Assembly (NCBI GenBank): GCA_964632795.1
Contig: CAZWEZ010000005.1
Location: 314-64,313, forward strand
DNA from: an uncultured Thalassospiraceae bacterium
GTDB lineage: Bacteria > Pseudomonadota > Alphaproteobacteria > Rhodospirillales > 2-02-FULL-58-16
DNA length: 64,000 nt
Reading direction: 5' to 3'
The notes under the pieces are model-generated. The model made no database searches, had not been told where the DNA came from, and saw only the letters and a program-made list of their open reading frames with translations. Both the position numbers and the translations under genes were made by a program. Below are positions 8,931 to 63,464 of the stretch, in pieces. Positions within the stretch are counted from its first letter, which is position 1, and each line of letters starts with the position of its first letter.

Positions 8931-9039
8931 GACCTGAAATATGGATTAAGTAATAATGAGTTCCCCCACACAGGGGGACACAGACATGGCAAAGAGTAAC
9001 GTTGGATTTACAGTAACCAAGGTAAAGGAGACAGGGAAG

Positions 9040-33427: not shown

Positions 33428-37024
<3,597 letters not shown>

Positions 37025-37316
37025 TGCCGGAGTTCCTTTTCTGCTTGCCGGGAAAGACTTCCGCCGGCCCCGCGAAACGGGCCGGCGAGGTTTTCGCATG
37101 ATATCATATCGCGGCGCGGAATTGAGCGCGAAAATAAGAGAAGGACGCCCGTGCGGCAAGCCCAAAAGGAACGACTCCATGGCTGAACAATTGAAACGCG
37201 TCTCATAAGTCAAAGAAAACTCAAGTCACCAGCTGAACGAACTTCAGGCAATGAAATCAGTGCTAACCACACTGGTCTAACACGTGGCCATCGCTATGGC
37301 ATGGCAGGATCAGGCA

Positions 37317-40300
37317 TTATTTTTTATTAGGCGGCTTGCTGGAACGAGTCTTCTTGCGGGTAGGCCGTTTCGTTTTACTGGTTAAATGGCCATCCACCAT
37401 CGTCAGTCCAAGGCGGGAAGCCTCTTTTTCTCTGAACCGCGAAATCAGACCAAAGTCGGCCATCGTTAACTCTGTCACTGGAGCTTTTAAAGCGTTTGGT
37501 AGATCAGGGATTTCGTTCCAGCCATGCTGATAATTATTAAAAGAGTCAAGGGAAGTTAAGGTGTGACAGATGGCATCTCTCACAAAACTAGTCAAGTTCT
37601 CTATCCTTGAAGCCAAAATTGGGATATCGCCATCATTGAAAGCGGTGATGACTTTAACGATCCATCCACCGACTGGATGTTCGAGGGAAATGATGGCGAC
37701 ATGTTCTAACAAACCGACTCTGGAATATTTGAATGCAAATGTCGTAGAACGAGGTAATTTCTCAGCAATATATATCGGTTTATTGTTCTTAGTTCGTATT
37801 ATTGAAGATGTGTGATCTTGCTTTTGCCAGTAAATTGCCAGATAAATCTCGTCGATCCATTCGATTTTTTGAATCTGTCGATCAGAAAATAGTTTTTTCG
37901 TGAATTTTTCACACATTCTGAGACGGTCATCTGGATTTATCGCCGCCTCGATAGCTTTGAACAATCTATCATCGGTCTTGCCAAGATTTTTTGGAGATTC
38001 GAAAAATATTAAGTCATGAAGCCCTTCTTGCCTTGAGTCTAATATCTCCACAACCACCGAAATTTCACAAGCCTGTTGCAGAGAAATCAGTTTTCTTTTA
38101 CCGCGCCTTACAATCGGTACAGTCTTCGGTTGGGCAACCCAAAAGTCTTCGATATCAAAAATCTCCGAAAGACGCTGTTTATAAGCCCAACCATCCTGGC
38201 CCTTAGCTATTGCCGTCACAGATAAATGGTTTGAAAGTATATCCACCCACCGATCAGTCACAACACTGGGATCGAATTGCACTCGTGGTGTATAGTGCAT
38301 GTAGTCAATCGAACGACGCGACAATGGTGGTCTAAACGTGTCATCACGGATGTCAATTCTATGAATCTTATTGCCTTTGTAACCTACAAAACCTCCCAAA
38401 TGCATGACAACTCCATGGAAATACAGCATAGCTTTCGGTATTTCTGGGCTTTCTACCTGCGGAAAATCTATTTTATAATAGTAAATATAGTTGTTAATTT
38501 TGCTCCAATCTTCATTACCAGACGCATCTACGTGACAAAGAACATATAAATCACCCTCTATACCGCACCATTCTTGATTTTTTTTAACTACGGGAAAGGA
38601 CTTAAGAACAAACCGACAGTCTTTCGTGCGAATATCTTCGACATCGAAGGTAAACTCTTCGCCTCTTTCCGCTGTGATCTCACAGACCTGCCCAAAATCG
38701 TCGACTTCGATCGTGAATTCGACACGCCGGCACAATTCGCGGACATAGGCCGTCAATTGTCCGGAATTGAGGGCGCTGTCGGGTCTTAGCAGAACCTCGA
38801 TCCGGGTTCCTGGCTCCGTGCGGTCGCCATCTTCGACCACTAAATAACCACGGGGACCGTTGAGAGTAAGTTTAACCGGGTTATCACCCGATTCGGAGGA
38901 CGGTTTGAAGGTCTCAACGGTAACATGGTTCGATACGCCGAATACGGACAGAAAACCGACCCCAAATCGACTAGTCGGGGTAAAGGCGTAACGTTGGCGG
39001 AAGTCTTCCGTCGTGTAATATGATAGGCCGATCTGAAGCAGATGGTGCGATATCACCTGCTCGTCCATGCCGATCCCACAGTCATCAATCACAAGGACTC
39101 GCTGTTCCTCACCATTTCCATTTCCGTCGGTTTCACCGGAACCGCCCGTAATCGAAAGGCGAAGGCGATATCTTTCTCTGACTTCAGCGGGAACCAGTGT
39201 CGGAGACCGTGGCGTTGGTTTACCGGCTTCCTTCAAGTCCTCGTACATCCGGCATCGCATGGCATCCAAGGCGTTCTGAATGAGTTCGCGCACAAAATCC
39301 TTCTCATCTTCGTAGGCATCGAAGATAAGCCGGTTCATCACTTCGGTTTCATCCAGTTGAAATCGCCAATCTTTGATTTGGTATGTTGCGTCAGGCGCTG
39401 AAACGATCTTGATGGTTGGATCGCTACCAGCCATCCGCGCTACCGGAGGTTCCCACACTTTTCGCTCGCTTGGATCGGCAAGCAAATTCGGGATGGCTTC
39501 CACTTCGTTCACGATCCATTGACACCAATCCCGAAGAACCCGGTGTTCCTCCGGATTGCCACATTCCGCATTAACTTCGATTTTCTCCGGCGTCACGGCT
39601 CGATGGCTTATGCTCCGATATTTGGTCCAATGTGCATAACTGTCGTCCGGCAAGGGACAGGCGGCATTCAATAGAAGCGGGCAGGCCCGGTCGGTCCCCA
39701 TGTCGAGCAGGTCGCCCAACCGAAGCAAAATCGCCATAAGCCTGGTATTGACGTTCTCGCCACGTATCTGGGTAAGGATGGGAAACCGAGTCCGGTCATC
39801 GAGTCCATCCGGTGGGAGCCCATGCGCGATGCATACGTTCGCGATGGTCCTTTCCAATTGCGGATCATCGTAGGCGAAACGACCAAGGGCGGATTGATGT
39901 TGGGAAATGACGTCTCCGGCACGCTCATGATGACGCCGACGAACGAAGTCCGCGATCATGAAACGGACTTCCCTATCGGCGATGAAATTTCTTATGACTT
40001 GATTGTCAGGCTCATCACTGTCTCGCATTTCCTTGATTTCGCGCCAGCGCTGTGTACCGCCACCGTCCTGTCCGGTCCATTTTTTCCAGCCGTCAGATTC
40101 CAGGATTTTCTGTTTTTCCTCGTCGGAAGCAACCATACCGCTGTCGTGAAGGTAGGCAGCGACAATAAGAATATAGACTTCGACGGAAGAGAGATTGACG
40201 GTAGGAGTTAGCGAATCGGGAGGGAAAAGCAGATGTGATAGCTGCGTAATTATTGCTTCGCTATGGCCTATTGTGTGTCGGGTGTAATGCGGAAAGGTCT

Positions 40301-40421
40301 CGGGAATATATTCAAGCCATCCTTTAATCACTTCCCGTTGTTCGTCAATCTTTCCGTAGTAGGCTTTATCTTTCTCTACGAGAAAGCGAAATAAGGCCGT
40401 GTCAGTGATCTCGCTAACCAT
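37317..40421 (-). CDS. 1034-aa HD-domain + GHKL (Hsp90/MORC/sacsin-like) ATPase protein with unassigned C-terminal half
   Basis: The HD signature is HTIGH (aa 49-53) plus LHD (aa 91-93, nt ~40143-40151). The Bergerat-fold boxes are ELIQNALD (nt 39264-39287), DDCGIGM (39066-39086) and SRFGVGF (38952-38972). There is a Lys/Arg-rich tail. GC is low: a hand count of line 38401-38460 gives 27/60, against 47/60 in nifJ line 36001-36060. Confidence 0.8.
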   Translation of the reverse strand: MVSEITDTALFRFLVEKDKAYYGKIDEQREVIKGWLEYIPETFPHYTRHTIGHSEAIITQLSHLLFPPDSLTPTVNLSSVEVYILIVAAYLHDSGMVASDEEKQKILESDGWKKWTGQDGGGTQRWREIKEMRDSDEPDNQVIRNFIADREVRFMIADFVRRRHHERAGDVISQHQSALGRFAYDDPQLERTIANVCIAHGLPPDGLDDRTRFPILTQIRGENVNTRLMAILLRLGDLLDMGTDRACPLLLNAACPLPDDSYAHWTKYRSISHRAVTPEKIEVNAECGNPEEHRVLRDWCQWIVNEVEAIPNLLADPSERKVWEPPVARMAGSDPTIKIVSAPDATYQIKDWRFQLDETEVMNRLIFDAYEDEKDFVRELIQNALDAMRCRMYEDLKEAGKPTPRSPTLVPAEVRERYRLRLSITGGSGETDGNGNGEEQRVLVIDDCGIGMDEQVISHHLLQIGLSYYTTEDFRQRYAFTPTSRFGVGFLSVFGVSNHVTVETFKPSSESGDNPVKLTLNGPRGYLVVEDGDRTEPGTRIEVLLRPDSALNSGQLTAYVRELCRRVEFTIEVDDFGQVCEITAERGEEFTFDVEDIRTKDCRFVLKSFPVVKKNQEWCGIEGDLYVLCHVDASGNEDWSKINNYIYYYKIDFPQVESPEIPKAMLYFHGVVMHLGGFVGYKGNKIHRIDIRDDTFRPPLSRRSIDYMHYTPRVQFDPSVVTDRWVDILSNHLSVTAIAKGQDGWAYKQRLSEIFDIEDFWVAQPKTVPIVRRGKRKLISLQQACEISVVVEILDSRQEGLHDLIFFESPKNLGKTDDRLFKAIEAAINPDDRLRMCEKFTKKLFSDRQIQKIEWIDEIYLAIYWQKQDHTSSIIRTKNNKPIYIAEKLPRSTTFAFKYSRVGLLEHVAIISLEHPVGGWIVKVITAFNDGDIPILASRIENLTSFVRDAICHTLTSLDSFNNYQHGWNEIPDLPNALKAPVTELTMADFGLISRFREKEASRLGLTMVDGHLTSKTKRPTRKKTRSSKPPNKK

Positions 40422-40609
40422 GGTTGGAACTCACGGAGCAATGATCGGGTTTAACATCCGCTGAGTAAGGTAGCCGATTGGTTGATAGTGTGACAAGCCC
40501 AACAGGCAGCGGAGCTAATTGAGCCGTTTGCCCGGGCCGCCGACCGTGTTGCCAGGCCCCGTCGATCCGGCCTACGCTGGATGCGGACTCAGCCGCGGGA
40601 GCCGACGAC

Positions 40610-42019
40610 ATGTCCGATCTCGAACTCGCCTACACGCCGGCCGCCGAGGTGGCCCGCATGATCCGCGATCGTGAGGTGTCGCCGGTCGAGGTGGTGAACA
40701 ACGCGCTTGAGCGCATAGACGAGGTAAACCCCGTCCTCAACTGCTTCTGCTTCACCTACCCCGAAGAGGCGCTGGAGAAGGCGCGGGTGGCGGAACGCGC
40801 GGTTAGCGCCGGGGGCGACCTCGGAGCGCTGCACGGGGTGCCGGTGGCGATCAAGGACTTCACGCCGACCAAGGGCAAGACCACGACCCTGGGCTCGCGT
40901 CTGTACCGGGACTGGGTGCCGGACTGGGACCCGGTCATCGTGCGGCGCCTGGAGGCGGCGGGGGCGATCATGCTCGGCAAGACGACGACCCCCGAATTCG
41001 CCCACTCCAGCTTCACCGAGAGCCCGCTGTGGGGGGTGACCCGCAACCCCTGGAACCGCGAGCGCACGCCGGGCGGCTCCTCGGGCGGCTCGGCGGGCGC
41101 CGTCGCCACCGGCTGCGTGGCGCTGGCCGAGGGCACCGACATGGGCGGCTCGGTGCGCATCCCGGCGGCGCTGAGCGGGATCGTCGGGCTCAAGCCCTCT
41201 CTCGGCCGCATCCCCATGGACATCGTCAAGACGGTTTATGATTCCATATCCCACTTCGGACCGCTGGCGCGCACCGTCGAAGACGCGGCACTGTTCCTCG
41301 ACGTGGTCCAGGGGCCGGACAACCGCGACATCCAGTCCCTGCCCCGCTGCGACATCCCCCGTCCGCTGTCGGGCGACGTCGCGAACCTGAGGTTGGCGCT
41401 GTCCATCGACCTCGGCTTCTACGCCGTCGATCCGGAAGTCGAGGCCAACACCAGGGCCGCGGCCGGGGCCCTGGTCGGGGCCGGGGCGACGCTCGAGGAG
41501 ATCGACCTCGGCTGGCGGCGCCAGATCAACGACGCCTGGTACGCCTACTGGGGGGTGTTCCTGGCCGCCTGCTTCGGCGACCACTTCGAGGCCCAGCGCG
41601 CCGAGATGGACGACGAGGTGGTCAGGTTGATCGAGGCCGGCCTGGCCATGGACGCCGTCGCCTTCAAGAAGCTGGAGTTCGTGCGCACCGAACACTGGCT
41701 CAAGCTGGCCGCGGTGCTCGACGACTTCGATGCCCTGCTGTGCCCGACCATGGCCCTACCGGCCCCGGAGATCGGCGGCGCCGACAGCCTCTACGAAGGG
41801 GAGGACGAGGAGGGCCGCTACCACGGGCTGGACATGACCTGCGGGTTCAACTTCACCGCCCAGTGCCCGGCCTTCTCGGTGCCTTCGGGGTTCACCGCCG
41901 CCGGCCTGCCGACGGGGTTGCAGATCGTCGGCCGGCGGTTCGACGACCCGGGGGTGCTCAACATCGGCGCGGCGCTGCAGAAAGCCCGCCCGTGGACCGC
42001 CAGGCGGCCCGAAATCTAG
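40610..42019 (+). CDS. Amidase (amidase-signature family), second copy
   Basis: The motif is [45 protein letters not shown]. The product is 469 aa with GC typical of the host. Confidence 0.9.
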   Translation: MSDLELAYTPAAEVARMIRDREVSPVEVVNNALERIDEVNPVLNCFCFTYPEEALEKARVAERAVSAGGDLGALHGVPVAIKDFTPTKGKTTTLGSRLYRDWVPDWDPVIVRRLEAAGAIMLGKTTTPEFAHSSFTESPLWGVTRNPWNRERTPGGSSGGSAGAVATGCVALAEGTDMGGSVRIPAALSGIVGLKPSLGRIPMDIVKTVYDSISHFGPLARTVEDAALFLDVVQGPDNRDIQSLPRCDIPRPLSGDVANLRLALSIDLGFYAVDPEVEANTRAAAGALVGAGATLEEIDLGWRRQINDAWYAYWGVFLAACFGDHFEAQRAEMDDEVVRLIEAGLAMDAVAFKKLEFVRTEHWLKLAAVLDDFDALLCPTMALPAPEIGGADSLYEGEDEEGRYHGLDMTCGFNFTAQCPAFSVPSGFTAAGLPTGLQIVGRRFDDPGVLNIGAALQKARPWTARRPEI

Positions 42020-47690: not shown

Positions 47691-48396
47691 TGCCGGGATA
47701 GAGGACGTACAGCATCGCGTAGGTGAGGCTTCCGGTCACGAACAAGGCACCGTAGATCCAGAGGGTGAGGCGGCCCAGAACCCTATGTCGCCGCGCGCCG
47801 CTCGGCCAGACGCGCTGGATCACGACCTCGAGCGCGAACACGAGGGCGATCACAAGCAGGAGGCCGAGGTAGACGGCAAGTTTCCGCAGGGAGAACTCCG
47901 AGCCGATCGTCCGGACCGCGAACAGCAGAACCACCGCGGCGGCGATCCACCCGAAACGCAGCGCTATCCGGGCCCACGACGCGACCAGGGGACCCTCCCG
48001 CAGAAAGCGCCGCCCCGCGGACAGGCCCTGCGCCCGAAATCCAAGAACGATCATGTACACCGCCATGACCAGCCCCAGGATCACCAGGCCGATGTGAACG
48101 CTCAAGAGCGGCACGAACAGGCGTTCGTACAGCTCTTGGGGTCCGCCGAAGCCCTCCTTGCCTTCGAGCGCCAGCACGCCCAACTGGCGGAACAAGTAAT
48201 AGCTGGTGAAAAACGCGATCATGGCCAGCATGCCGCCGAGCATCAGCCAGTGATGGCGGTGTCCCTGATGGCGCCGCGCCTGGAACCATCCGATGACGAA
48301 CAGCGCCGGGAACAGCGTCGCCATGATCTGACTGAGATCCGCCCCGATCATGGCGTGGGTCCCGAACAACCCCGGTTCCTTGAGCCACTCCGCCAT
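47680..48396 (-). CDS. Polytopic membrane protein (DUF420-like by recollection)
   Basis: A 238-aa product with ~6 TM helices and conserved-looking His residues (RRHQGHRHHWLMLGGM, LLSVHIGLV). The family assignment is tentative. Confidence 0.5.
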   Translation of the reverse strand: MAEWLKEPGLFGTHAMIGADLSQIMATLFPALFVIGWFQARRHQGHRHHWLMLGGMLAMIAFFTSYYLFRQLGVLALEGKEGFGGPQELYERLFVPLLSVHIGLVILGLVMAVYMIVLGFRAQGLSAGRRFLREGPLVASWARIALRFGWIAAAVVLLFAVRTIGSEFSLRKLAVYLGLLLVIALVFALEVVIQRVWPSGARRHRVLGRLTLWIYGALFVTGSLTYAMLYVLYPGRVG

Positions 48397-48554
48397 CTGC
48401 GCCTGCTCTATTCGCCGCGTTGCGTGTCTCGGGGCCTGGACCCGAAGGGATATCTACCGCCTCTCCCCATGGGATGACGCTACACCGCCTCGTCAGAAAG
48501 AAGAAGCCCCGCCGCTGGTTGGTCAGCTATGGTGCTGGCAGCGGACGTAACGGC

Positions 48555-48586
48555 GGGGTGGGCTGAACCGCCGCTGATAGCCAACA
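48555..48586 (+). repeat. Direct repeat copy 1 (ggggtgggctgaaccgccgctgatagccaaca)
   Basis: It matches 49491-49523 in 28 of 33 aligned columns. The core gaaccgccgctga[t/c]agccaa is 19/20 identical. Confidence 0.4.
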
Positions 48587-48760
48587 GGAGAAGTTTGCGA
48601 TGCCGGTGGAGGAAGCTGTCTGGAGCATGGTTGATACGTCACGTTTCAGCTGAGGCTCAAGGTTTCTGGCGTAGATCTCCGTCCACGCAACATATCCAGT
48701 TGTAAATTGGTCACATATCAGTTATTGTGGTTGAATAAGTGGACAATTGGGATGTTTGTC

Positions 48761-49165
48761 ATGAGTTCGAGTTGGTTGAAGGGACGTTTCTGTTACTCGC
48801 TGTCTGTCGCTCTTGCGGCGGTAGCTGCCCTGGTCATGGTTACAACTACGGAATTGGCTGCCGCTGAATGGCAAACTGCCGATGAAATCCGCGCTCAGCT
48901 TATCGGTAATGGCGCCAAGCTGAAGGGATACGAAGATGGAGTCTGGTGGATTGAAGAGTATATGGAGGACGGCGAAATCAAAGGGATGTGGGGCACCGAC
49001 CTTTACAAGGGTAAATGGTCGTTCGACGGCGATTTGATGTGCTTCGACTATAAAGGCACCGTAGATGACGAATGCTGGTACCTCGCCATCGATGGCAAAA
49101 AGGTGATGTGGTGGGATCCCGACGGTAAGTTCGCCCCCCCCGTCGACAAATACCTGGCGCCCTGA
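48761..49165 (+). CDS. Small secreted hypothetical protein
   Basis: The signal peptide is MSSSWLKGRFCYSLSVALAAVAALVMVTTTELAAAEW. The mature part is Trp/Asp/Gly-rich and the gene is low in GC. Alternative starts are 48707 and 48752. Confidence 0.5.
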   Translation: MSSSWLKGRFCYSLSVALAAVAALVMVTTTELAAAEWQTADEIRAQLIGNGAKLKGYEDGVWWIEEYMEDGEIKGMWGTDLYKGKWSFDGDLMCFDYKGTVDDECWYLAIDGKKVMWWDPDGKFAPPVDKYLAP

Positions 49166-49490
49166 TCACCCGCCAATCGCGCAGGAACCGATGCTTGAGG
49201 TGGTTGCGGTGTGAGCCATTATCTTTCTTCGGGATCATGACCGTGAAGGCGCAGTTATCGTCCTTCTGTGTTTTGCCACGCTCACGGTTGCACCAAGCCC
49301 TGTGAACCGGTGATATCTGGATAACTTGTTGCGGCGGATTGAAGTTGAATAATGGCCGCTTAGGGTCATCTGCGGCCCAAACCGTGCCCTCCAAATGAGG
49401 TCCGCAGCCAGAGGTCAAGCTGACGAAACTCGGTGGATAGCTGACCTTCGGGCTGAACGTCGGCTTGCTGTAGGAAAGCGGTCGTGGTCT

Positions 49491-49523
49491 GGGGTAGCCT
49501 GGAACCGCCGCTGACAGCCAAAA
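49491..49523 (+). repeat. Direct repeat copy 2 (ggggtagcctggaaccgccgctgacagccaaaa)
   Basis: See copy 1. Together the two copies bracket the 48761..49165 gene. Confidence 0.4.
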
Positions 49524-49588
49524 CTCGGACATCAGCCAGTCGCAACAAGTGCCGCGAACCGGCCTTCGCGCCAAACGGAAATGCTGTT

Positions 49589-51313
49589 TTATTGCTCGGT
49601 TAGTCCGGCTTTGTGGAGGCCGTCCAGCAACGAGTCCAGATAATCCTTGGGGACGCTTGGAATGTGACTGCGGATGAAGTCCAGGGTGATGCCAGGACGC
49701 TTCTTCTCCAAATCTTCGCGGGCGTGCCGCGCCTCTTCGGTACGCCCAAGATGGCCGAGCGCGGCGATCATGTAGGTGTACCCGGGCCAGGGGACGGTCT
49801 TTCGAATTCCGATCCGGCCCTTCTCCACCGTCTGGTCGTATTGCCCGAGATAGAAATGGGCAGCCGACAAGCGGGCATAGAACGGTCCGATCCCGGGGTC
49901 GGCGGGGCTCAATTGGATAGCCTCCTCCATATGGGGGATCGCTTCCTCCGCCCGTCCCGAGCGGGTGAGGGACATCCCCAGCAAACTGTGCGCAAGCGCG
50001 CAGCTTGGATTGATGCGGATCGCCTCGCGGTAGGCCGCAATGGCGTCGTCGTTCTGCCGTTCGGGCGGCAGCGTCTGGCCAATGGCGATATGCGCGAAAT
50101 GATCCCTGTCGTCCAGTGACACTGCGGTTTCCGCAGCCCGGAGCGCGGTCTCGCGGTCGGCATCGGTGAGGTCGAGGATCGAGTCCTGGGCATAGGTCCA
50201 AGCCTTGCCGGCGTGGGCGCTGGAGAAATTGGGATCCCGCTCGATTGCTTGTTCGAACAGCCTGCGCGCCTCAAGAACGTCCTCCTTGGTGCGCCGGAAG
50301 ATGTGGGCAATTCCCCGGTGAAAAAGCTCCCAGGCATCCAGATTCTCGGTCGGCTCGGTCTTCACACGTTCGTATTCCGCCCGCCCCAGTTCGGGTTCCA
50401 TCTGGGCGACGATCATTCCGGTGATTTCATCCTGCAGCGCGAACAGATCCTCGAACTTTCGGTCGTACCGTTCCGCCCAAACATGGTTACCGCTCGCCCC
50501 ATCGATCAATTGCGCGGTGATGCGGATGCGTTCGCCAGCCTTGCGCACGCTGCCTTCGAGCACGTAGCGCACGCCCAATTCGTTCGCCACCTGGCGAATG
50601 TCCGGCGAGGTTCCCTTGTAGTGGAAGGTGGAATTGCGGGCGATCACGAAGAAGGTGCGAATGCGCGACAGGGACGTGATGATGTCCTCGACCAGGCCGT
50701 CTCCAATGAAGTCCTGGTCCGTGTCACCCGAGAGATTGTCGAACGGCAAGACGGCAATGGAGGGCTTGTCGGGCGTGGGCGAGTGAATGTCGGGCTTCGT
50801 ACCCTTGGCCCCCGGGGAGATGGCATAGACCCGGACCGGATGGGTGACATGTTTGACCGATTGTTCGCCCAAATCCTGGAACGGCACGTCTATGCGGTTT
50901 CGCACCAGGGCGTGCGTCTCGCCGGAGATGCAGATGCCGCCAGGTTCGGCTAATCCTTCGAGCCGTGCCGCCACGTTGACACCCTCGCCGTGAATGTCCT
51001 CGCCGTCATCAACGATGTCGCCGAGATTAACTCCCATTCGAAATTCTAGGCTGTTCGAGGTCAGGCCTTCCTGCATGGCGATGGCGCAGTTGACCGCGTC
51101 CTGCACCGAAGGAAATTCTACAAGAAACCCATCTCCGGTGAGCTTGACGATTTTGCCGGAATGGGCTCCGACCTGAGGCTTGATCACGTCCTCGCGTGCG
51201 GCTTTCCACGCGGCGACCGTGCCGTCGGTGTCCTCTTCCATGAGGCGCGTGTAACCCGCCACATCAGCGGCCAGGATGGCTGCAAGCCTACGCTGGACCG
51301 GTTGTTCCCTCAC
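49589..51313 (-). CDS. Class III adenylate/guanylate cyclase with C-terminal TPR repeats
   Basis: Cyclase motifs are ILAADVAGYTRLM, KLTGDGFLVEF and GEGVNVAARLE. TPR-like repeats occupy the C-terminal half. Confidence 0.9.
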   Translation of the reverse strand: MREQPVQRRLAAILAADVAGYTRLMEEDTDGTVAAWKAAREDVIKPQVGAHSGKIVKLTGDGFLVEFPSVQDAVNCAIAMQEGLTSNSLEFRMGVNLGDIVDDGEDIHGEGVNVAARLEGLAEPGGICISGETHALVRNRIDVPFQDLGEQSVKHVTHPVRVYAISPGAKGTKPDIHSPTPDKPSIAVLPFDNLSGDTDQDFIGDGLVEDIITSLSRIRTFFVIARNSTFHYKGTSPDIRQVANELGVRYVLEGSVRKAGERIRITAQLIDGASGNHVWAERYDRKFEDLFALQDEITGMIVAQMEPELGRAEYERVKTEPTENLDAWELFHRGIAHIFRRTKEDVLEARRLFEQAIERDPNFSSAHAGKAWTYAQDSILDLTDADRETALRAAETAVSLDDRDHFAHIAIGQTLPPERQNDDAIAAYREAIRINPSCALAHSLLGMSLTRSGRAEEAIPHMEEAIQLSPADPGIGPFYARLSAAHFYLGQYDQTVEKGRIGIRKTVPWPGYTYMIAALGHLGRTEEARHAREDLEKKRPGITLDFIRSHIPSVPKDYLDSLLDGLHKAGLTEQ

Positions 51314-55849: not shown

Positions 55850-56035
55850 CGCCCGCTTCTTCCCGCCAAGCGGTCACCCGGCAACAGGCCGCCGAACTTC
55901 GCCTCGCAACCCTTTGCAGACAATCCGATTCGACCTCCGCTCGGTCCAACCCAAAAAGTGGTATAGTTCGTGGGCACGTGTCATTCGCGCTGGATAAACG
56001 ATTCCTGCAACACGCCCAGAGGAGAGGAGGGAAAA

Positions 56036-56296
56036 ATGAAAACGTTATCTCAAGTTTCGTTTTGGCTGGGAATTTTCTGTATCCCGCTTGCGTGGCTGTT
56101 TTGGTACTTCGGGACAGAAATCGAAATCATAAGACCGGTTCTTGGCGGTATTGACGATCCCGCGTTAAGAGCGGTCTTACAAGAAGCTCATGCAGAACGG
56201 TTGGGAACATGGGTAGGTATTTGGCCAGTAACTCTTCTGATATTGAGCCATATCTTTGAAATGAAAGTGCAGGAACACTCCAAGACGACGCCTTAG
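56036..56296 (+). CDS. Small membrane protein (86 aa)
   Basis: GGAGAGGAGGG precedes ATG 56036. The product has two TM helices and the gene is low in GC. Confidence 0.45.
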   Translation: MKTLSQVSFWLGIFCIPLAWLFWYFGTEIEIIRPVLGGIDDPALRAVLQEAHAERLGTWVGIWPVTLLILSHIFEMKVQEHSKTTP

Positions 56297-56518
56297 TGAC
56301 GGGGTTTCCGGACAGCCCATTCTTGGAGAATCTCGGACTTCCGGCACTCGTCCTTAGGCCCGGTTATGGCTAAACTCGGCTGTTCCAGGCTACCTCGGAG
56401 TACGACCGCTCTCCTGCACCAAGCCGGCGTTCGAGCTTGAATGTCGGCTTTCTCGCCGGTTTGGTCATCTTCAGGATGGTCGGCAGTCCTGGCGGTGGTG
56501 AGGCTGTCACCGCTGGCA

Positions 56519-57316
56519 TCAACCCTGTTTCCGGAACACGAGCGTGTAGCTCATCGGCAACCGGGGGCCCTGCTTTTCCACATTCCACCAGGCGTTGGAA
56601 ATGTGATCGGGCAGTTCTTCGAAGTACTCCACGGCCATCCCCGAGCGGATGCCGGCCATGATGATCTCCGACATCGGATGGAGAAAAGATGTGGCCGGCT
56701 TGGCGTCATAGGGTTCGCCGCCATAGTAATCCAACCCCTTCTTTTCCACATAAGGCTCCTTGTCGAAATAGGACAGCTCCCAATCCACGGGGTCGTCCGC
56801 TCCACCGGGCGACATCATCTCGAGAACGGGGTGCTGCTCGTAAATAAAAACAGCGCCGCCGGGGCGAACGAGACGGGTAGTGGAATCGAAGAATCCCTGC
56901 AGGTCCGGCATCCAGCCCAGAACACCGATGGTAATGGTTACCACATCGAAACAGCCGTGGTAGCGCGGGTCGATGCGATAAATGTCGGTGCGGATGAATT
57001 CGCAATCGGCATCCGCCGCCCGGGCCAGTTCACGGGCCTGTTCGACAAATCCCCGAGCCCCGTCGAAGCCGACGCAGCGGGCGGCCCCCATGCGTTTCAC
57101 GCAAATGAGTTCCCGCCCGTTATTGCAGCACACTTGCGCCACATCCTTATCGCGGATGCCGATTGCCTCGAGGCGGGCGGTTTCAATGTCATTGAGCAAC
57201 GAGAAACCCGGATCGCGGAAGGATGCGAGCAGGTTTTGCTGATTGTGCGCCCCATGACGCGGCGCCACTTCTTCCCAGGCTTCGCGGTTCGCTTCGGTAA
57301 TTTCCCTGGTCCCCAT
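56519..57316 (-). CDS. Class I SAM-dependent methyltransferase
   Basis: The start MGTREITEANREAWEEVAP is at CAT 57314-57316 after GGGAGAGGGAG. Motif I is like VAQVCCNNGRE, and LVRPGGAVFIYEQHP is present. Confidence 0.75.
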   Translation of the reverse strand: MGTREITEANREAWEEVAPRHGAHNQQNLLASFRDPGFSLLNDIETARLEAIGIRDKDVAQVCCNNGRELICVKRMGAARCVGFDGARGFVEQARELARAADADCEFIRTDIYRIDPRYHGCFDVVTITIGVLGWMPDLQGFFDSTTRLVRPGGAVFIYEQHPVLEMMSPGGADDPVDWELSYFDKEPYVEKKGLDYYGGEPYDAKPATSFLHPMSEIIMAGIRSGMAVEYFEELPDHISNAWWNVEKQGPRLPMSYTLVFRKQG

Positions 57317-57450
57317 CTCCCTCTCCCGACTTATACCAAGGGGCACTGATAATGACCCATAGAGACGGCAACATGCACTACAAGTGCCAGTGATAGGCCC
57401 CCGGCGGCGCCCTCTCGTAGCGTTTCGTGGAGAAAGTTTAGCGGCCGCTA

Positions 57451-57987
57451 TCAGCCCAGGTGCTCCCTGAGGCGGGGCATCAGTTCGACGAAGTTGCACG
57501 GCCTGTGGCGGCTGTCGAGCTGGTGGACCAGGATATCGTCCCAGGCGTCCTTGCAGGCCCCGGTGGAGCCGGGAATCCCGAACAGGTAGGTGCCCTCGGC
57601 GACCCCGGCGGTGGCCCGGGACTGGATCGCCGCGGTCTTGATCTTGTCGTAGCTGAGCATCCGGAACAGCTCGCCGAAACCTGGGATCTCCTTGTCGTAG
57701 ACCTCCTGGAAGGCTTCGGGCGTGATGTCGCGCCCGGTGATCCCGGTGCCCCCGGTGGCGATCACCGCATCGACCCCCGGATCGGCGATCCAGCCCTTCA
57801 AGGCGGCGACGATGAGGTCCTTGTCGTCGCTCACGATCCGCCGGTCGGCGACCTTGTGGCCGGCCCCCTCGATGCGATCGACCAGGGTCTGGCCCGAGGT
57901 GTCGGTCTCCAGCGTGCGGCTGTCGGAGACCGTCAGCACCGCGATGTTGACGGGAAGAAACGCGCGTTCACCTTCGATCTTGCTCAT
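57451..57987 (-). CDS. moaB: Molybdenum cofactor biosynthesis protein B
   Basis: It has the MoaB/Mog fold signature [15 protein letters not shown]. Confidence 0.9.
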
Positions 57988-59797
57988 CTTGCGCCACCAT
58001 CATCGGTTCGCGATCCAATGGTATATAGGTCGGCCAGTCGCCGGCGGCAATGGCGTCCAGTGACGGCGCCGGCTGACCCAGGCGGTTGCGGTAGATCCAA
58101 AGGTTGGTCAACACCCGCTCGATGAAGATGCGGGTCTCGCGCGTGGGCAGGCTCTCGATGAAGAACAGCGGATCGTCCATGTGCTTGATCTCGCGCCGCC
58201 ACTTGTTGAGGTTGCCGGGGCCGCCGTTCCAGGCCGCGGCGAGCAGGAACAAATCGCCCCTGATCTTTTTGTCGGCGAGCAGCATCGAGACGTACTTCTG
58301 GCCCAGGCCGAGGTTGACCACGGGTTCGAACAGGGTCCGCCGCTTGGTGGTCCTGAGCCGCTTGTCGCGGGCGACGAAGCTGGCGGTGCGCGGCATCAGC
58401 TGCATCAGGCCGCTGGCCCCGGCGTAGCTCTTGGCCTTGGGGTTGAAGCGGGATTCCTGACGGACCAGCGCGTAGATCAGCGCCCGGTCGATTCGGAACC
58501 CGCCGTCGGGGCGCCACCCCGGGACCGGGTAGGCGGCGCCGTCGTAACCGCCGCCGTCGGGGAACAGGCGCTCGTTGAGGCGCACCGCCAGGGCCGGCAT
58601 GTCGGCGCGGCTGGCCAGGGCCAGGACGCCGCGTATCAACGCCGGGCCGCCCGAGGCGGCCACGGCGCGCAGTTCCCGTTCGGCCCGCCGGTCGCGGCCG
58701 ACGCGGATCAGGGCCAGCGCGCGGCGCCCTTCCGGGACCGCCTCCAGAGCCTCCACCGCCGCCGTCGCCAGCTCGGGCGTCGCCCAGTCGAACCTGGTCG
58801 GCAAGGCCAGCAGGCGGCGCGCCAGCAGACCGTAGAAGGTGCGCGGATGGGCCGCCGCCTTGGCCAGCAGGGGGGTGACCCTGGCCGGCCGGCGGTCGAC
58901 CAGATGGCTGCGCGCCGCCCAGAAGGCGGCCGCCGAGATCAGCCACGGCGAGTTGGCCTCGCTCGCCACCGCCTCGAAGTGGCGCCCGGCATCGGCGAAG
59001 CGGCCCAGCCGCCAGGCCGCCAGGCCCGCCGTCCAGTTGGCCTCGGGGACAAAGGTTCCCGAACGCCCGGCCGCCCGCCCGGCCCATTGCAGCGCCCATT
59101 CGTCGCGCCCGGCGGCGAAGTAGCCGGCGCCGAGCCCGGCCTGGGCGCTGTCGTATTCGAAAGCGGTGAACAGGTGCTTGACCTTGTCCTCGCGCAACAG
59201 CTTCTTGACCGCCAGGGTCCAGCCTTTCCTCAGGTACCAGCGGATCTTCCGCTGGTAGGCGCGGACCTGCAGGCGTTCATCCTTGGAGCGGCGCTTGGTC
59301 GCCGGCATTGCCGGACCCCGCTTGGCGGCCTCGGCGACGACGGCGGCCGGGCGCCGGGAGAGCGGCGGTTGGGGGGCCTTCCAGTTCTCGGGCCGGCGGC
59401 GAAGGGCCAGCTTGTAGATGCGCCGGGCGTCGGGATGGTCGGCATACAGCGCCATCCAGTCCTTCAGCTCCTTGTAGCGGGAGCGGTACTTGGTCGGATG
59501 CAGGTAGCGCTGGGCCATCACGTGGCCCATAAGAAGGCGGTCGGCGAGTCGGGCGATGAGGCGGTCGGCGGCCTTCCAGTCGCCGTCTTCCTGGACCTCG
59601 AAAATCCGCCGGTAAAGGTCGGCGTCGTCATCGCCGAGGACCCGGGGCAGGACCGCCGCCGCCGCGGGGTCGTCGCCGCCGGGCTCCAGCAACGCCGTCT
59701 CGACGGCATCCGGCACCCGATCGTCGGCCGTCGCCGGCCACCAAACGAGGCCGGAAAAAGCCAACAAGCAAATAATGGAGCGGGAGAATGAGGTCAT
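57968..59797 (-). CDS. slt: Soluble lytic murein transglycosylase (Slt family)
   Basis: A signal peptide is present. The SLT catalytic motif is [25 protein letters not shown]. The 3' end overlaps moaB by 20 nt. Confidence 0.9.
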
Positions 59798-59967: not shown

Positions 59968-60510
59968 TCAGGGAGCCGCGCGGCAGGCGATCAGGTTGAC
60001 CGCGGACATGCTCATCGCCACCACGCGGTCCTGGTTCAGGACCTCGATCAGGGAGCGCACCACGCCGCGGTCCGGCTTGGAGGCCGAACGCCTGGCCTCG
60101 AGGATCGTGACCCGCACCGACAGGGTGTCGCCGGGGCGCACCGGAGCCCGCCAGCGCAGCTCGTCGATCCCCGGCGAACCCAGGCTCGAGGCGTTCGACA
60201 GGTAGTGGCGGACGTACAGCCGCATGGTCATGGCGGCGGTATGCCAGCCGCTGGCGATGAGGCCGCCGAAGGCCCCGGCGCGGGCCTTTTCGGGGTCGGT
60301 GTGCATGTCCTGGGGGTCGTAGCGGCGCGCGAAGTCGAGGACCTCGGCCTCCTCGACGACGAGCGAGCCAAGCTCGTGGACGTCTCCCGTCACGTAGTCC
60401 TCGAAATAACGATCCGCATCGGGTGCGGTGAACGGCTGCCTGCTCAAGGTGCGCCTCGTCCCTTCGGTTTCACGGACAGCTCCCTTGCCACCGGCCCGAC
60501 CCGCTGTCAA
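59968..60510 (-). CDS. MaoC-like (hot-dog) dehydratase
   Basis: DFARRYDPQDMHTDPEKARAGAFGGLIASGWHT is present. The start is uncertain, and the listed ORF is probably N-terminally too long. Confidence 0.8.
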   Translation of the reverse strand: MTAGRAGGKGAVRETEGTRRTLSRQPFTAPDADRYFEDYVTGDVHELGSLVVEEAEVLDFARRYDPQDMHTDPEKARAGAFGGLIASGWHTAAMTMRLYVRHYLSNASSLGSPGIDELRWRAPVRPGDTLSVRVTILEARRSASKPDRGVVRSLIEVLNQDRVVAMSMSAVNLIACRAAP

Positions 60511-60516
60511 GCCCGG

Positions 60517-60525
60517 CGAAAATTA
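60517..60525. repeat. 9-bp direct repeat CGAAAATTA (left target-site duplication)
   Basis: It is identical to 63405-63413 and lies immediately outside the left inverted repeat. Confidence 0.6.
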
Positions 60526-60534
60526 GGCACTGTC

Positions 60535-61476
60535 TCACTTTGAAATTCTTTTGTAAGGCCCGCGTTTCCTGGGCTCCGGGGCATCATCATCGACCAGCTT
60601 CACGATGTCCTCCATTGACCACAACGTGCTCGTGATGCCAGCCGCCATCGCGGGGGAAGTCTTAACGGCGCTGTTGATCCTAGCAAAGTTGTACCAGACC
60701 GTATAGAGCGCCACCATGTGACAGTGGTTCTCAAATTTCTTGCTGTGGGCATTGGTCAGCCGCGTGAAGCGGCGCATGTGCATCCGCATTGAGAGGTTCT
60801 GGCGCTCGACGTAAGACGTTGAAACGTGCTTAGGGTCGGGCTTCCCCTCAAACCGTTCCTTGCGGGCTCCTACACACCTACCAGAGCTATAGCGGGCTTC
60901 CGGGGTGCTAGATTTATGGGCAACCCCATACAGCTTGATAAGCTGGGCAAAATCAACGTCGGCCCCAAATGCCCCTTCAACAGCGTCCAGGTAGGGGTTA
61001 TGGCCATCGGTCGTAAGCTGGACCCGGTTGGCAAGCCTTGAAGCCACGTCCTGCATGAACTCGTTTGCGTACTCGGCATCCCGACCGCCGACCAGCCAGC
61101 CGACGATCAGCTTGCTATCGGCATCTAAGGCCGTCCAGGTCCACACGTCGCCAGCGCCGTCAGGAGCCTTCTTTGCAGTCGGGACGTTCTTGGCCTTGGC
61201 GTAACAGAAGCTCCAAATTTCGTCGCACTGGACGCGCTGCGCTCTGACCCCGCGCACATTGTCGTCATGGAACCGCGCACAGACCAGCCCGGCATCCACC
61301 AGCAGCTTTGTCACGGTGTTGATCGACACGTCCACCACGCGGCTGATAGATCGCATAGAAGACCCCTCGCAGAGCATGGAGAGGATTTGGACGCGCTTCT
61401 CGGGGGGCAATTTGTTCATGCCCACATTATATGAACTTATATGCTTGGCGTCAAGTAGTTTTTTCAGTTCACGCAA
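60535..61476 (-). CDS. IS1-family-like DDE transposase (single ORF with N-terminal HTH)
   Basis: The sequence is MNKLPPEKRVQILSMLCEGSSMRSISRVVDVSINTVTKLL...VQCDEIWSFCYAKAKNV...WTWTALDADSKLIVGWLVGGRD...YVERQNLSMRMHMRRFTRLTNAHSKK. This resembles the IS1-type D..E.W / W.w.a.d / G.R pattern by recollection. The likely start is MNKL at 61419. The stop codon lies inside the left IR. Confidence 0.7.
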   Translation of the reverse strand: MRELKKLLDAKHISSYNVGMNKLPPEKRVQILSMLCEGSSMRSISRVVDVSINTVTKLLVDAGLVCARFHDDNVRGVRAQRVQCDEIWSFCYAKAKNVPTAKKAPDGAGDVWTWTALDADSKLIVGWLVGGRDAEYANEFMQDVASRLANRVQLTTDGHNPYLDAVEGAFGADVDFAQLIKLYGVAHKSSTPEARYSSGRCVGARKERFEGKPDPKHVSTSYVERQNLSMRMHMRRFTRLTNAHSKKFENHCHMVALYTVWYNFARINSAVKTSPAMAAGITSTLWSMEDIVKLVDDDAPEPRKRGPYKRISK

Positions 61477-61579
61477 GCGCCGGGCATGGGCCAGCCATCA
61501 TATTTTATAAAATGGCTTGCTATTTTGTGATTGTAGCGCGTATTTTGTGGATGTGATTAGGTGAAACACGGGCCATAAA

Positions 61580-62815
61580 ATGGCAAGACCGAAAGACGAT
61601 GAAGGTTGGTTGGCGCTTCGACATGAGGTTAACGAGGCGTTCAGCCCGGGTTCTCCTATTAGGGCACTCACGGAATTGGCGGGGCGCACAGAACAACGTC
61701 AGCGTCTCTGCGATATCATGCTCAGAGCGGGCGAGCATGCAATAATTTTCGGAGAGCGTGGCGTAGGCAAAACCTCACTTGCCCGAACATTTCACGCGAT
61801 CCTAAATACGGACACGCGTCAAGTTCAAGAATGTCCCATCAATTGCGTGGAAGCGGATACATATACAGCTCTTTGGCGGAGAGTTTTCAAGAGGCTTGGC
61901 TATAAAGGAGATAACGCCAGCATCGACCAGCATTACAATGAGGAAATTACACCAGATGACGTTCTTTTAGAACTTGACCGCTTTTCTTTGAATGACATGC
62001 CTATTATAATATTTGATGAATTTGATCGTCTTTCTGCTGAAGAAGCAAAGAACTTAATGACTGACACAGTTAAGTTGTTATCAGACGATCGATCCCACGC
62101 AAAACTCTTATTTGTTGGCATTGCCGATGATGTTAGTGAACTTATCAGCCGGCATAGATCTCTTTCGAGAAACCTGAAACAAGTTCATATGCCGCGACTA
62201 AGTCTTAACGAAGCGGAAGGAATAGTTAGAATAAGATTAAAAAAATGTGGGATGAGTATTGAAGATGACGCTTCTTTCCAGATTGCCTTTCTGTCACGCG
62301 GGCTTCCCTACTTTTCTCACTTAGTTGGGCAGTATGCTGCGTTGAGCGCGATCAACAATTTGCACATGAATGTTACCGAGGCCGATGTTTTTACTGGCTT
62401 GGAGACGGCATTACAAGATGTGGATCAAACAATTACAGAAGCCTATTTGAAGGCGGTTGTTAGTCAACGCCCGGATGAAACCCTCTATGAACCGGTTCTA
62501 ATAGCTTGTGCGCTCGCTGATCCAGACGAATTGGGCAGATTCCAGCAGACCGCAGTAACCGATCCATTGTCCGAAATAATCCCAAGGACCCCCCTCTACA
62601 CACCAAGCACGTTCGCATTTCACATGAACAAGTTTTGCGACAACAAGCGCGGCCAAATTCTTACAAAAACTGGGGAAGCGAGAAACTATAGATATTATTT
62701 TACTGATCCAATGATGCAGCCTTATATAATACTGCGCGCGCTGGAAGCGAAAAGAATAAGCAATGAGATGCTTGAGCGGTTTATTGCTCGGCGTCAACGG
62801 CGGCTTTCCATCTAG
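61580..62815 (+). CDS. AAA+ (ORC/Cdc6- or TniB-like) P-loop ATPase, 411 aa
   Basis: Walker A is GERGVGKTS and Walker B is IIIFDEFD. A sensor-like FVGIADD is present. The C-terminal ~150 aa are possibly winged-helix. Confidence 0.8.
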   Translation: MARPKDDEGWLALRHEVNEAFSPGSPIRALTELAGRTEQRQRLCDIMLRAGEHAIIFGERGVGKTSLARTFHAILNTDTRQVQECPINCVEADTYTALWRRVFKRLGYKGDNASIDQHYNEEITPDDVLLELDRFSLNDMPIIIFDEFDRLSAEEAKNLMTDTVKLLSDDRSHAKLLFVGIADDVSELISRHRSLSRNLKQVHMPRLSLNEAEGIVRIRLKKCGMSIEDDASFQIAFLSRGLPYFSHLVGQYAALSAINNLHMNVTEADVFTGLETALQDVDQTITEAYLKAVVSQRPDETLYEPVLIACALADPDELGRFQQTAVTDPLSEIIPRTPLYTPSTFAFHMNKFCDNKRGQILTKTGEARNYRYYFTDPMMQPYIILRALEAKRISNEMLERFIARRQRRLSI

Positions 62816-63029
62816 CTCTTGCCGCCTTTCTCGCAATTTCTCGCCGCCTCTGCGGGCTAAGTTTTTCGGCACGCGCCGCGCCTCCCTTCCGGCCAAGCGC
62901 CTGGGCGGCCTTGTTCTTGCCGTCGTCGGTGTATTCTTCCTCGGCCTCGCCCGTCGCGATCTTCATCACCTTGACGGCGGCGCCGATCACGTCAGCGGGG
63001 CGCTTCTCTCCTTTAGGGCCTCTAGGCAT
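62781..63029 (-). CDS. Small basic protein, 82 aa (MPRGPKGEKRPADVIGAAVKVMKIATGE...)
   Basis: The start is at CAT 63027-63029. The Lys/Arg-rich C-terminus is GRKGGAARAEKLSPQRRREIARKAARARW. The 3' end overlaps the convergent ATPase gene by 35 nt. Confidence 0.5.
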   Translation of the reverse strand: MPRGPKGEKRPADVIGAAVKVMKIATGEAEEEYTDDGKNKAAQALGRKGGAARAEKLSPQRRREIARKAARARWKAAVDAEQ

Positions 63030-63309: not shown

Positions 63310-63404
63310 GTCTCGGATTCCTGTGCTTTCCGCTAAGCATACAGGATGTAGAGAGGTTCCGCCACCATCTGTCAAGGGGCTGAGATTTCAAACTGAGACA
63401 CTAC

Positions 63405-63413
63405 CGAAAATTA
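63405..63413. repeat. 9-bp direct repeat CGAAAATTA (right target-site duplication)
   Basis: It is identical to 60517-60525 and lies immediately outside the right inverted repeat. Confidence 0.6.
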
Positions 63414-63464
63414 CAGCGCAAGAAGCGGAGTGCGCGGGCCGCGAGACTGTTCTAGATTCGATTC

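Follow-up and report, generated by a model that had tools for sequence, protein, structure and literature searches.

The Locus and Its Inserted Gene

We examined a 64,000-nucleotide stretch of DNA (the window) from an uncultured Thalassospiraceae bacterium, in which an earlier reading of the letters alone, the original prediction, had picked out a low-GC block holding one candidate defense gene. This gene encodes a 1034-residue protein in which an HD-CE phosphoesterase domain is joined to an Hsp90-like ATPase, and it arrived at its present position, between two metabolic genes, as a 3.36-kb insertion of horizontally acquired DNA that has not been ameliorated. The features of the locus are as follows, with positions in the protein given in amino acids (aa).

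37161–40519, no strand: inserted island of 3,359 bp, defined relative to an empty site in the related contig L083
37317–40421, minus strand: coding sequence of the HD-CE and Hsp90-like protein, 1034 aa, ATG start, TAA stop at 37317–37319
39498–40295, minus strand: HD-CE phosphoesterase domain, aa 43–308, Pfam PF24391
38697–39374, minus strand: Hsp90/HtpG-type GHKL N-domain, aa 350–575
37395–38696, minus strand: region resembling the Hsp90 middle and C-terminal domains, at fold level only, aa 576–1009
38313–38330, minus strand: PPLSRR, candidate equivalent of the Hsp90 catalytic loop, aa 698–703
37320–37394, minus strand: Lys/Arg-rich tail, aa 1010–1034, disordered in the model, with a predicted local distance difference test score (pLDDT) below 50
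40422–40519, minus strand: island-borne 5' non-coding region, 98 bp inside the insertion, presumed promoter region
37258–37274, minus strand: terminator-like hairpin, 43 nt past the stop codon, a single consensus match
37151–37169, plus strand: left copy of an imperfect 19-bp direct repeat, GTGCGGCAAGCCCAAAAGG, at a position coinciding with the homology breakpoint
40488–40506, plus strand: right copy of the repeat, GTGTGACAAGCCCAACAGG, 16/19 identical to the left copy
33428–37024, minus strand: nifJ/PFOR (pyruvate:ferredoxin oxidoreductase), host gene, 1198 aa, Pfam POR_N, POR, EKR, Fer4 and TPP_enzyme_C
40610–42019, plus strand: amidase, host gene, 469 aa, Pfam Amidase, E=2e-105

The borders of the island come from a comparison with close relatives. 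The amidase of the window has two public protein relatives at 90% identity or more, and short contigs carrying their genes with upstream DNA (L082 and L083) allowed the junction to be compared. In L083 (GCA_030623495.1), positions 131–487 align with 36799–37160 of the window, covering the 5' end of nifJ and its upstream region at 85.6% identity, and positions 510–1698 align with 40520–41711, covering the amidase gene and its upstream region at 93.5% identity. The gap between the two homology blocks measures about 22 bp in L083 and 3,359 bp in the window. Because the homology with this empty site breaks at 37161 and 40519, these replace the borders first proposed, 37214 and 40609.

The island also stands out in composition. 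The two flanks have GC contents of 0.682 and 0.635 and the island 0.477, a trough of 0.39–0.55 runs across the block where the surrounding DNA has 0.67–0.72, and at 2-kb resolution no other segment of the window is lower; the hand count that first drew attention to it (27/60 at 38401–38460) proved exact. GC content at third codon positions (GC3) is about 0.55 for aa 1–575 and 0.40 for aa 576–1034, compared with 0.93 in the neighboring amidase gene. Overall GC steps down within the gene as well, from 0.52 over aa 1–575 to 0.415 over aa 576–1034, which could reflect a mosaic origin or a weaker constraint that exposes the bias of an AT-rich donor. Moderately low GC (0.56–0.60 against a window mean of 0.647) is also seen at 8001–10000, 48001–50000, 56001–58000 and 60001–64000.

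The original prediction had seen no partner gene, transposase or flanking repeat at the block. The first two statements hold, as the open reading frames (ORFs) of the island include no partner gene, transposase or integrase, but a direct repeat of 19 bp does exist at the junctions. Its 16/19 match was reached by 0 of 2000 shuffles and by 5 of 3000 random pairs of real 60-nt windows, and so exceeds chance. The repeat looks like an att core or a target duplication. A third copy of the motif (CGGCAAGC..AAAAGGAAC) lies inverted at 37032–37050 on the minus strand, 8 nt upstream of the nifJ ATG, and is able to pair with the left junction copy over 19 nt with 89% complementarity and a 103-nt loop; judged from the sequence, such pairing could form a stem in the nifJ 5' untranslated region or be part of a recombination site. 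No tRNA gene that might serve as an integration target was found within the window, and no Rfam family matched in the island, including its 98-bp 5' region. An integron cassette was considered and rejected, there being no convincing attC-like structure and no Rfam match.

The empty site in a close relative, the GC3 contrast and the junction repeats together identify a foreign single-gene island. A deletion in the L083 lineage is formally possible, and the composition of the island favors an insertion here; whichever way the change ran, close relatives differ in whether they have the gene. The pairing of filled and empty sites with precise borders, together with the att-like repeat, suggests that the gene moves as a one-gene cassette.

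All other ORFs in the block are short and overlap the 1034-aa frame, in agreement with the single gene first reported. An identical protein (P0001) is found in public collections, and in an alignment of 30 family members, from which all residue conservation below is taken, M1 and L10 are invariant, so that the N-terminus is conserved. A scan of the 98-bp 5' region for the sigma-70 consensus found none. The terminator-like hairpin carries little weight, since such matches are fewer than expected from shuffles.

An HD-CE Phosphoesterase Head

The HD phosphohydrolase-like domain first proposed for the N-terminus was borne out by profile search and belongs to a curated family, Pfam HD-CE, although the architecture had at first gone unrecognized. 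The match has E=2e-50 and 172.4 bits against a cutoff of 27, and spans profile positions 1–262 of 263. CE stands for conflict effector, a name that comes from Nicastro, Burroughs, Iyer & Aravind 2023 (NAR 51:11479) and is cited and explained in PMC12871103. The metal-binding and catalytic residues H49, H53, H92-D93, H164, D237 and D240 are invariant in the family, as is H165, and 18 HD-CE proteins representing five architectures all keep the same set, H165 aside. In Pfam searches the protein matched neither iHD-CE, the inactive form, nor HD (PF01966) nor dGTPase, and the families for SpoT/RelA-type HD and HD-GYP gave no match even at E<=1. With every catalytic residue kept, the HD-CE head is active-looking rather than an inactive form. 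Similarity to solved structures is marginal and falls on class I cyclic-nucleotide phosphodiesterases (PDEs) over the H-x3-H...HD motif (PDE6, E=0.009; PDEB1; PDE9A), which suggests a PDE-like, two-metal phosphoesterase chemistry.

Across bacteria and archaea, the HD-CE domain occurs in several settings. Pfam scans of distant HD-CE proteins recovered the combination with an Hsp90-like part in Methanosarcina, Chryseobacterium and Sphaerochaetaceae, and also HD-CE joined to long unassigned regions, to an S-adenosylmethionine (SAM) methyltransferase and to an inosine-uridine nucleoside hydrolase, as well as a stand-alone form of about 290 aa. The methyltransferase fusion is encoded in Blautia (L067, 5284–7011) and the nucleoside hydrolase fusion in an Oscillospiraceae metagenome-assembled genome (MAG; L064, 8344–10173). 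The latter would be a two-step enzyme taking nucleotide to nucleoside to base, and it points to free nucleotides as the substrates of HD-CE. In PADLOC-DB v2.0.0, aa 46–286 match positions 699–913 of the RT_UG24 model, its phosphohydrolase part, with E=4e-14. From its range of architectures, HD-CE behaves as a modular effector.

An Hsp90-Type ATPase Domain

HD-CE is followed by an ATPase domain in which the three GHKL boxes are complete. The motifs quoted in the original prediction are all present where it placed them, with one residue to be corrected: the invariant aspartate of box II is D447, not D446. In box I (RELIQNALD), E379, N383 and D386 are invariant in the family, as are D447, G449 and G451 in box II (DDCGIGM) and G487 and G489 in box III (SRFGVGF). 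NCBIfam searches matched HtpG (E ~1e-17) and HSP90 (E ~1e-15), and a PDB profile search returned HtpG/Hsp90 N-domains with E down to 5e-16. Aligned by hhalign with a profile built from three annotated HtpG genes and yeast Hsp82, aa 350–572 fall on HtpG 9–217 (Prob 98.85, E=4e-17, 31% identity). The equivalog cutoffs for HtpG are missed by a wide margin, at 62.5 against 371 bits for PRK05218 and 57.3 against 455 for PRK14083. On these sequence comparisons, the protein is Hsp90-like without being an ortholog of HtpG.

The first description, an Hsp90/MORC/sacsin-like ATPase and not a histidine kinase, was right as to Hsp90 and less apt in its comparison with MORC and sacsin. A histidine kinase can be rejected because the protein has no HisKA domain and its motifs are Hsp90-type, and MORC or MutL identity because no MutL, MORC or topoisomerase appears among the top 50 PDB structural matches. 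Weak profile matches to other GHKL proteins do occur: HATPase_c_3 of Pfam scores 23.2 bits, under its gathering cutoff of 25, SACS/sacsin-domain matches reach 16.4 bits against a cutoff of 32.8, and a BbrUII/HgiDII restriction-enzyme model gives a weak GHKL match.

A C-Terminal Half with a Probable Hsp90-Like Fold

The rest of the protein had been described as some 530 residues in which no motif could be recognized. This region is in fact about 455 aa long (aa 576–1034), and structural searches with Foldseek give it a probable identity. The full-length AlphaFold2 model has a mean pLDDT of 79.3, and its top 50 PDB matches are all Hsp90-family chaperones (E ~1e-13 to 1e-14). Alignments to full-length Hsp90, TRAP1 and Hsc82 run over 720–750 columns on targets of 600–640 residues, and against constructs of the N-terminal and middle domains the target TM-score (TMt) is 0.51–0.54. 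This span exceeds what the N-domain alone could give and supports a fold like that of the Hsp90 middle and C-terminal (M+C) domains. The alignments reach the C-terminus, where a helical bundle is predicted at aa 916–1003. A separate model of aa 575–1034 (pLDDT 78.5) found as its best matches the M+C domains of human Hsp90 (7rxz, E=0.01, 442 columns), those of GRP94 and the middle domain of Hsp90-beta, though these matches are weak (E 0.01–0.4, none passing E=0.001). From the models, we think it likely that aa 576–1009 are divergent Hsp90 middle and C-terminal domains.

A short motif in this region may correspond to the Hsp90 catalytic loop. PPLSRR stands in the model after a beta-strand and before a helix, the same setting as the Hsp90 catalytic loop, whose sequence DLPLN(L/V)SRE was confirmed in 2CG9 and three HtpG sequences. 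In the family P-x-L-S-R is near-invariant, with S701 and R702 at least 90% conserved, and the modeled position would make R702 the equivalent of yeast R380 and HtpG R336.

Toward the end of the protein, about 20–50 residues from the C-terminus (aa ~965–995) and just ahead of the variable tail, lies a conserved motif, GW..IP.LP.EL.PP.IE.T..MF, that might be a docking or dimerization peptide. The Lys/Arg-rich tail noted at the outset is present in the window protein and is found in only 5 of the 30 homologs by a strict count, or about 9 of 30 by a looser one. Because so few carry it, we regard it as a variable appendage.

Structural matches among viral proteins (BFVD) begin with a giant-virus Hsp90 and continue with phage RIIA proteins ("protector from prophage-induced early lysis"), whose alignments are whole-length (~780–840 columns, E 1e-7 to 1e-6). 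Phage topoisomerase ATPase subunits are also among them, and haloarchaeal tailed viruses also encode HtpG-domain proteins. With the same overall fold, RIIA-type GHKL proteins of phages might be viral counterparts or decoys of the family described here.

A Small, Scattered Family with a Fixed Architecture

A first protein search returned 559 matches, of which the best 120 are nearly all 960–1030 aa long and about 40% identical over about 95% coverage. Their source annotations read "ATP-binding protein", "molecular chaperone HtpG" or hypothetical, and the nearest relative other than the protein itself is 47% identical. An exhaustive HMMER search with a C-terminal profile recovered 353 clusters (at 50% identity) among 1.84 billion representatives. 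The C-terminal module starts at about residue 570–590 in every full-length match, and of the matches with odd offsets, one is a fusion to an ABC ATPase and the rest are truncated HD-CE forms, so we consider the architecture of the family fixed. The fusion protein (P0247, 1272 aa) has an extra N-terminal ABC-type ATPase domain before HD-CE and the Hsp90-like part.

Full-length relatives were found in about 40 of 185,579 species genomes in a pattern-limited scan. The carriers are scattered over Chloroflexota, Acidobacteriota, Deltaproteobacteria, Bacillota (Paenibacillus, Heliomicrobium), Planctomycetota (Pirellulales) and archaea (a Bathyarchaeota MAG and Methanosarcina). In its patchy spread, its horizontal transfer and its presence or absence in close relatives, the family is distributed as defense genes are.

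Genomic Context of the Homologs

The surroundings of the homologs vary from locus to locus. All-against-all clustering of 512 neighboring ORFs from 35 loci found no conserved partner, no Pfam family recurs more than two to three times among the 114 nearest neighbors at 30 loci, and in two Paenibacillus species the neighbors are unrelated. With a patchy distribution and no conserved neighbor, a vertically inherited core gene in conserved surroundings, the condition under which the original prediction would fail, is excluded. About 5 of 30 loci have defense-candidate neighbors (PDC-M41A/B, PDC-M30B, PDC-S01, MADS mad3/mad6 and MkoA; a raw count), and the same 114 neighbors also include 2 integrases, 2 PIN genes and housekeeping genes (RNA polymerase, AcrB, chorismate-binding enzymes). 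One homolog has ribosomal and purine genes around it and an antitoxin remnant next to it, and another shares a Chloroflexota islet with toxin-antitoxin modules, transposases, a primase-polymerase and a gene for a TIR protein.

More distant relatives, 23–26% identical over HD-CE and the GHKL domain, are carried on plasmids of cultured bacteria. All 3 of the 3 plasmid relatives examined lie in defense-type neighborhoods with type I restriction-modification (R-M), Shedu or Gabija-like genes and integrases. The Pantoea relative adjoins a pair of AAA-ATPase and UvrD-helicase genes and a tyrosine recombinase, a type I R-M system lies at a distance of 2.4 kb from the Priestia relative, and the Aliarcobacter relative has IS21, an R-M S subunit and a Shedu nuclease close by. 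The last of these (Aliarcobacter butzleri plasmid p83; L088, 8004–10825) is annotated as two consecutive ORFs of 404 and 520 aa, as the result of a natural split or of a frameshift. Taken as a whole, the context marks the gene as accessory, mobile and conflict-associated.

Two lineages have further neighbors. In three Chloroflexota loci an unannotated ORF of about 176–179 aa lies directly downstream of the homolog (L002/L086, 13004–13534, minus strand; L012, 3279–3815, plus; L019, 7545–8081, plus), in opposite orientation in one of them, and could be a lineage-specific neighbor or an accessory factor. In Candidatus Nitronereus thalassa (L079, 9381–9713), a codirectional 110-aa gene with a weak HNH match is found 288 bp upstream of the homolog; it was not seen at the other homolog loci.

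In the window itself, the surrounding genes belong to ordinary metabolism: nifJ/PFOR, a second 2-oxoacid:ferredoxin oxidoreductase, the amidase, an ABC transporter and a deacetylase. The island lies upstream of both immediate neighbors, 136 bp from the ATG of nifJ, a start as called that is also used by the public protein P0124, and 90 bp from the ATG of the amidase. The insertion splits the divergent nifJ-amidase promoter region of about 245 bp, and the island gene is oriented toward nifJ, so that read-through or altered nifJ regulation is possible. The region upstream of the amidase (window 40520–40610, L082 1–370, L083 488–597) shows three arrangements in three relatives: the island in the window, an adjacent nifJ in L083, and in L082 a PLP-decarboxylase-like gene (PLP, pyridoxal phosphate) that abuts the amidase, ending 4 nt before its ATG. 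Because the arrangement differs in all three, this junction is a rearrangement hot spot.

A Putative Single-Protein Conflict System

The interpretation we favor, with some reserve, is that the island encodes a horizontally acquired, self-contained, single-protein conflict system, probably directed against phages or other mobile elements. The role in defense suggested at the outset gains from the membership of the head domain in the CE family and from the plasmid relatives beside defense genes, and loses from the many chromosomal loci of housekeeping character and from PADLOC, which recognized no named system when the check first proposed was run.

In such a system, the Hsp90-like part would form a C-terminally joined dimer acting as an ATP-driven conformational switch and sensor, a role played by STAND (signal transduction ATPases with numerous domains) NTPases in systems of the Avs/NLR type (NLR, nucleotide-binding leucine-rich repeat). 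An infection cue, for example disturbed proteostasis or the binding of a phage protein as a "client", would lead to ATP-dependent N-terminal closure, and closure would unite or unmask the two N-terminal HD-CE domains. These would then cleave phosphoester or phosphodiester bonds in free nucleotides such as dNTPs or NTPs, NAD+, or cyclic and oligonucleotide signals, and the loss of nucleotides would arrest replication of the invader and probably the cell too, as an abortive infection. SAMHD1-like dGTPases and dCTP deaminases are nucleotide-depletion defenses of this sort. Dimerization, trigger, substrate and abortive outcome are parts of the scheme that we infer, and control of an effector by a GHKL ATPase follows the precedent of VcSduA/paraMORC3 (PMC12137116). 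A more specific and decidedly tentative version is that of a stand-alone immune receptor built on a chaperone fold, in which the Hsp90-type clamp itself would sense phage "clients" or proteostasis stress and its closure would activate a nucleotide-destroying HD-CE.

Several observations weigh against the proposal of a conflict system. Profile comparisons gave no sequence support for the M+C domains, whether a family alignment used as a profile (A2) was set against the PDB or against yeast Hsp82 M+C, or A2 and a second such alignment (A1) against the HtpG/Hsp82 profile. Because these tests were negative, we keep the M+C assignment, and with it the modeled dimeric clamp, at the level of fold. 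The hallmark exchange of effectors is seen for HD-CE and not for the Hsp90-like C-terminal module, which in its 353 clusters never occurs with another effector. The weak PDE-like similarity (E=0.009) is compatible with phosphodiesters generally, nucleic acids included. Many chromosomal homologs, that of the window among them, lie amid housekeeping genes and not in recognizable defense islands, and the counts of defense neighbors are raw numbers. No match was found in IMG/VR or PHROGs that would indicate carriage by phages, and the only match in a phage collection is one unannotated 7-kb fecal "Bacteriophage sp." contig. PADLOC-DB v2.0.0 gave, besides the RT_UG24 part, only a negligible TmtA match (E=0.0036) and no named system, and a literature search found no experiment on any family member.

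One alternative keeps the conflict system and changes its target to nucleic acid, with HD-CE as a metal-dependent nuclease, the GHKL module as a MORC-, paraMORC- or MutL-like clamp on DNA or RNA, and a basic tail that helps to bind the nucleic acid. The HD domains of Cas3 and Cas10 are metal-dependent nucleases, PDE-like chemistry cleaves phosphodiesters, VcSduA/paraMORC3 sets a precedent for GHKL plus nuclease, and phage topoisomerase ATPase subunits and RIIA are among the viral structural matches. The weak matches to HATPase_c_3, a family that includes MORC, and to BbrUII/HgiDII would fit as well, but the former is below its cutoff (23.2 against 25) and the top 50 PDB structural matches are Hsp90 chaperones throughout. 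The Lys/Arg tail, which would suit the binding of nucleic acid, is missing from most homologs, and the nucleoside hydrolase fusion argues for small nucleotides as substrates. We judge this alternative improbable.

No likelier is a non-immune accessory gene, a paralog of Hsp90 that hydrolyzes a second messenger such as (p)ppGpp or a cyclic (di)nucleotide and serves as a stress or proteostasis factor. The annotation of homologs as "molecular chaperone HtpG" and the housekeeping or regulatory neighbors at many loci (MerR, two-component systems, transporters) speak for it, as does a metal-site motif like that of cyclic-nucleotide PDEs. Against it stand the small size and extreme patchiness of the family, the presence and absence in close relatives with unameliorated foreign codon usage, and the plasmid relatives in defense islands. 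There is no conserved regulatory partner, the HtpG equivalog score is 62.5 against 371 bits, and SpoT/RelA-type HD and HD-GYP are not matched at E<=1.

The gene might also be a passenger, selfish or in decay, that brings this host nothing at present: what is left of a larger mobile element, or an addiction gene resembling a toxin. A lone gene of unameliorated composition between att-like repeats, with neither integrase nor transposase, would look like this, the internal GC step suggests a mosaic history, and the Aliarcobacter relative is split into two ORFs. The window ORF, on the other hand, is intact with all family-invariant residues present, and purifying selection is implied by the full-length architecture that members from different phyla keep at about 40% identity; this explanation is rather remote. 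A vertically inherited housekeeping HtpG paralog whose low GC is a local quirk, for which only the Hsp90-type N-domain speaks, is refuted by the phyletic pattern and by the empty site in a relative with a 93% identical amidase, and it also fits poorly with a GC3 lying about 0.4–0.5 under that of the neighboring gene, a nearest non-self homolog of 47% identity and a missed equivalog threshold.

If the gene does encode a conflict system of the kind we propose, an Hsp90-type chaperone clamp would be a third NTP-driven switch in prokaryotic immunity besides STAND NTPases and GTPases, and nucleotide-depletion defense would be linked to chaperone-mediated infection sensing, as exemplified by bNACHT25, which senses through DnaJ. 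Should the receptor version be true, this would be the first tractable case of Hsp90 itself as the pattern-recognition and switch module and not as a helper of NLRs. The hypothesis is directly testable, since full-length homologs exist in the cultured strains Paenibacillus radicis CGMCC 1.15286 and P. phytohabitans LMG 31459, and distant relatives on plasmids of Pantoea, where the plasmid is pPA-MXU-125, and of Priestia and Bacillus. If defense is not its role, the island is still a well-bounded case of one gene recently transferred horizontally into a promoter region common to two metabolic genes.

Comparison with Known Systems

A specialist in conflict systems would already recognize the architecture. 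The fusion of HD-CE and Hsp90 is of a catalogued kind, predicted by computation, and the window protein is another member. Nicastro et al. 2023 reportedly describe systems in which HSP90- or HSP70-related modules, analogs of STAND and GTPase domains, are coupled to CE effectors; in the literature accessible to our search, we found no paper linking HD-CE to Hsp90. With Hsp90, HtpG and TRAP1 the protein shares the motifs F-x-RELI-x-NA-x-DA, D-x-GIGM and FGVGF, a whole-length structural alignment and, at a collinear position, a motif like the SR of the catalytic loop. Unlike these chaperones, it carries a 340-aa N-terminal enzyme and its M+C region is unrecognizable by sequence, and unlike HtpG, a core gene, its family is rare, patchy and horizontally transferred.

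A functional precedent is VcSduA/paraMORC3 (type I-D Shedu), a validated single-gene anti-phage system of a GHKL ATPase and a DUF4263 nuclease, in which defense requires both ATPase and effector activities and the ATPase controls the effector (PMC12137116). Both proteins join a GHKL ATPase and a hydrolytic effector in one polypeptide, and a dimeric clamp is predicted. VcSduA differs in having a PD-(D/E)xK effector and a MORC-type ATPase, whereas the window protein has an N-terminal HD-CE and an Hsp90-type ATPase, in reversed order, and it matched neither DUF4263 nor Shedu in Pfam or PADLOC. Another one-protein arrangement is that of eukaryotic sacsin, in which Hsp90-like ATPase repeats are followed by a C-terminal HEPN domain (PMC3710099). 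There too an Hsp90-like ATPase is joined to an effector-type domain directed at nucleic acids or nucleotides, although sacsin differs in effector, domain order and organismal range.

Other systems resemble the window protein in their effector. The UG24 reverse transcriptases (Class 3 UG/Abi) have a C-terminal phosphohydrolase and a predicted role in defense (Mestre et al. 2022, PMC9226505). An HD-CE-type phosphohydrolase is common to the two, but UG24 has a reverse-transcriptase domain and partner genes such as a primase, whereas the window gene has neither (no reverse-transcriptase family matched in Pfam) and its regulatory module is Hsp90-like. In PUA-Calcineurin-CE-HAD, the sister effector Calcineurin-CE has been shown by experiment to deplete dNTPs (PMC12871103), and the proposed output is the same, a CE phosphoesterase that would destroy nucleotides to abort infection. 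That system uses a calcineurin-like fold, a PUA sensor and two genes, where the window has an HD/PDEase, a putative Hsp90-like sensor and one gene.

Within the HD-CE family itself, the window protein shares the full-length, high-scoring domain and all metal ligands, here fused to an Hsp90-like ATPase. What the present analysis adds to the catalogued family is the empty-site pair, the att-like repeat, the completion of the Hsp90 part at fold level, a census of the family and a set of carriers that can be grown in culture.

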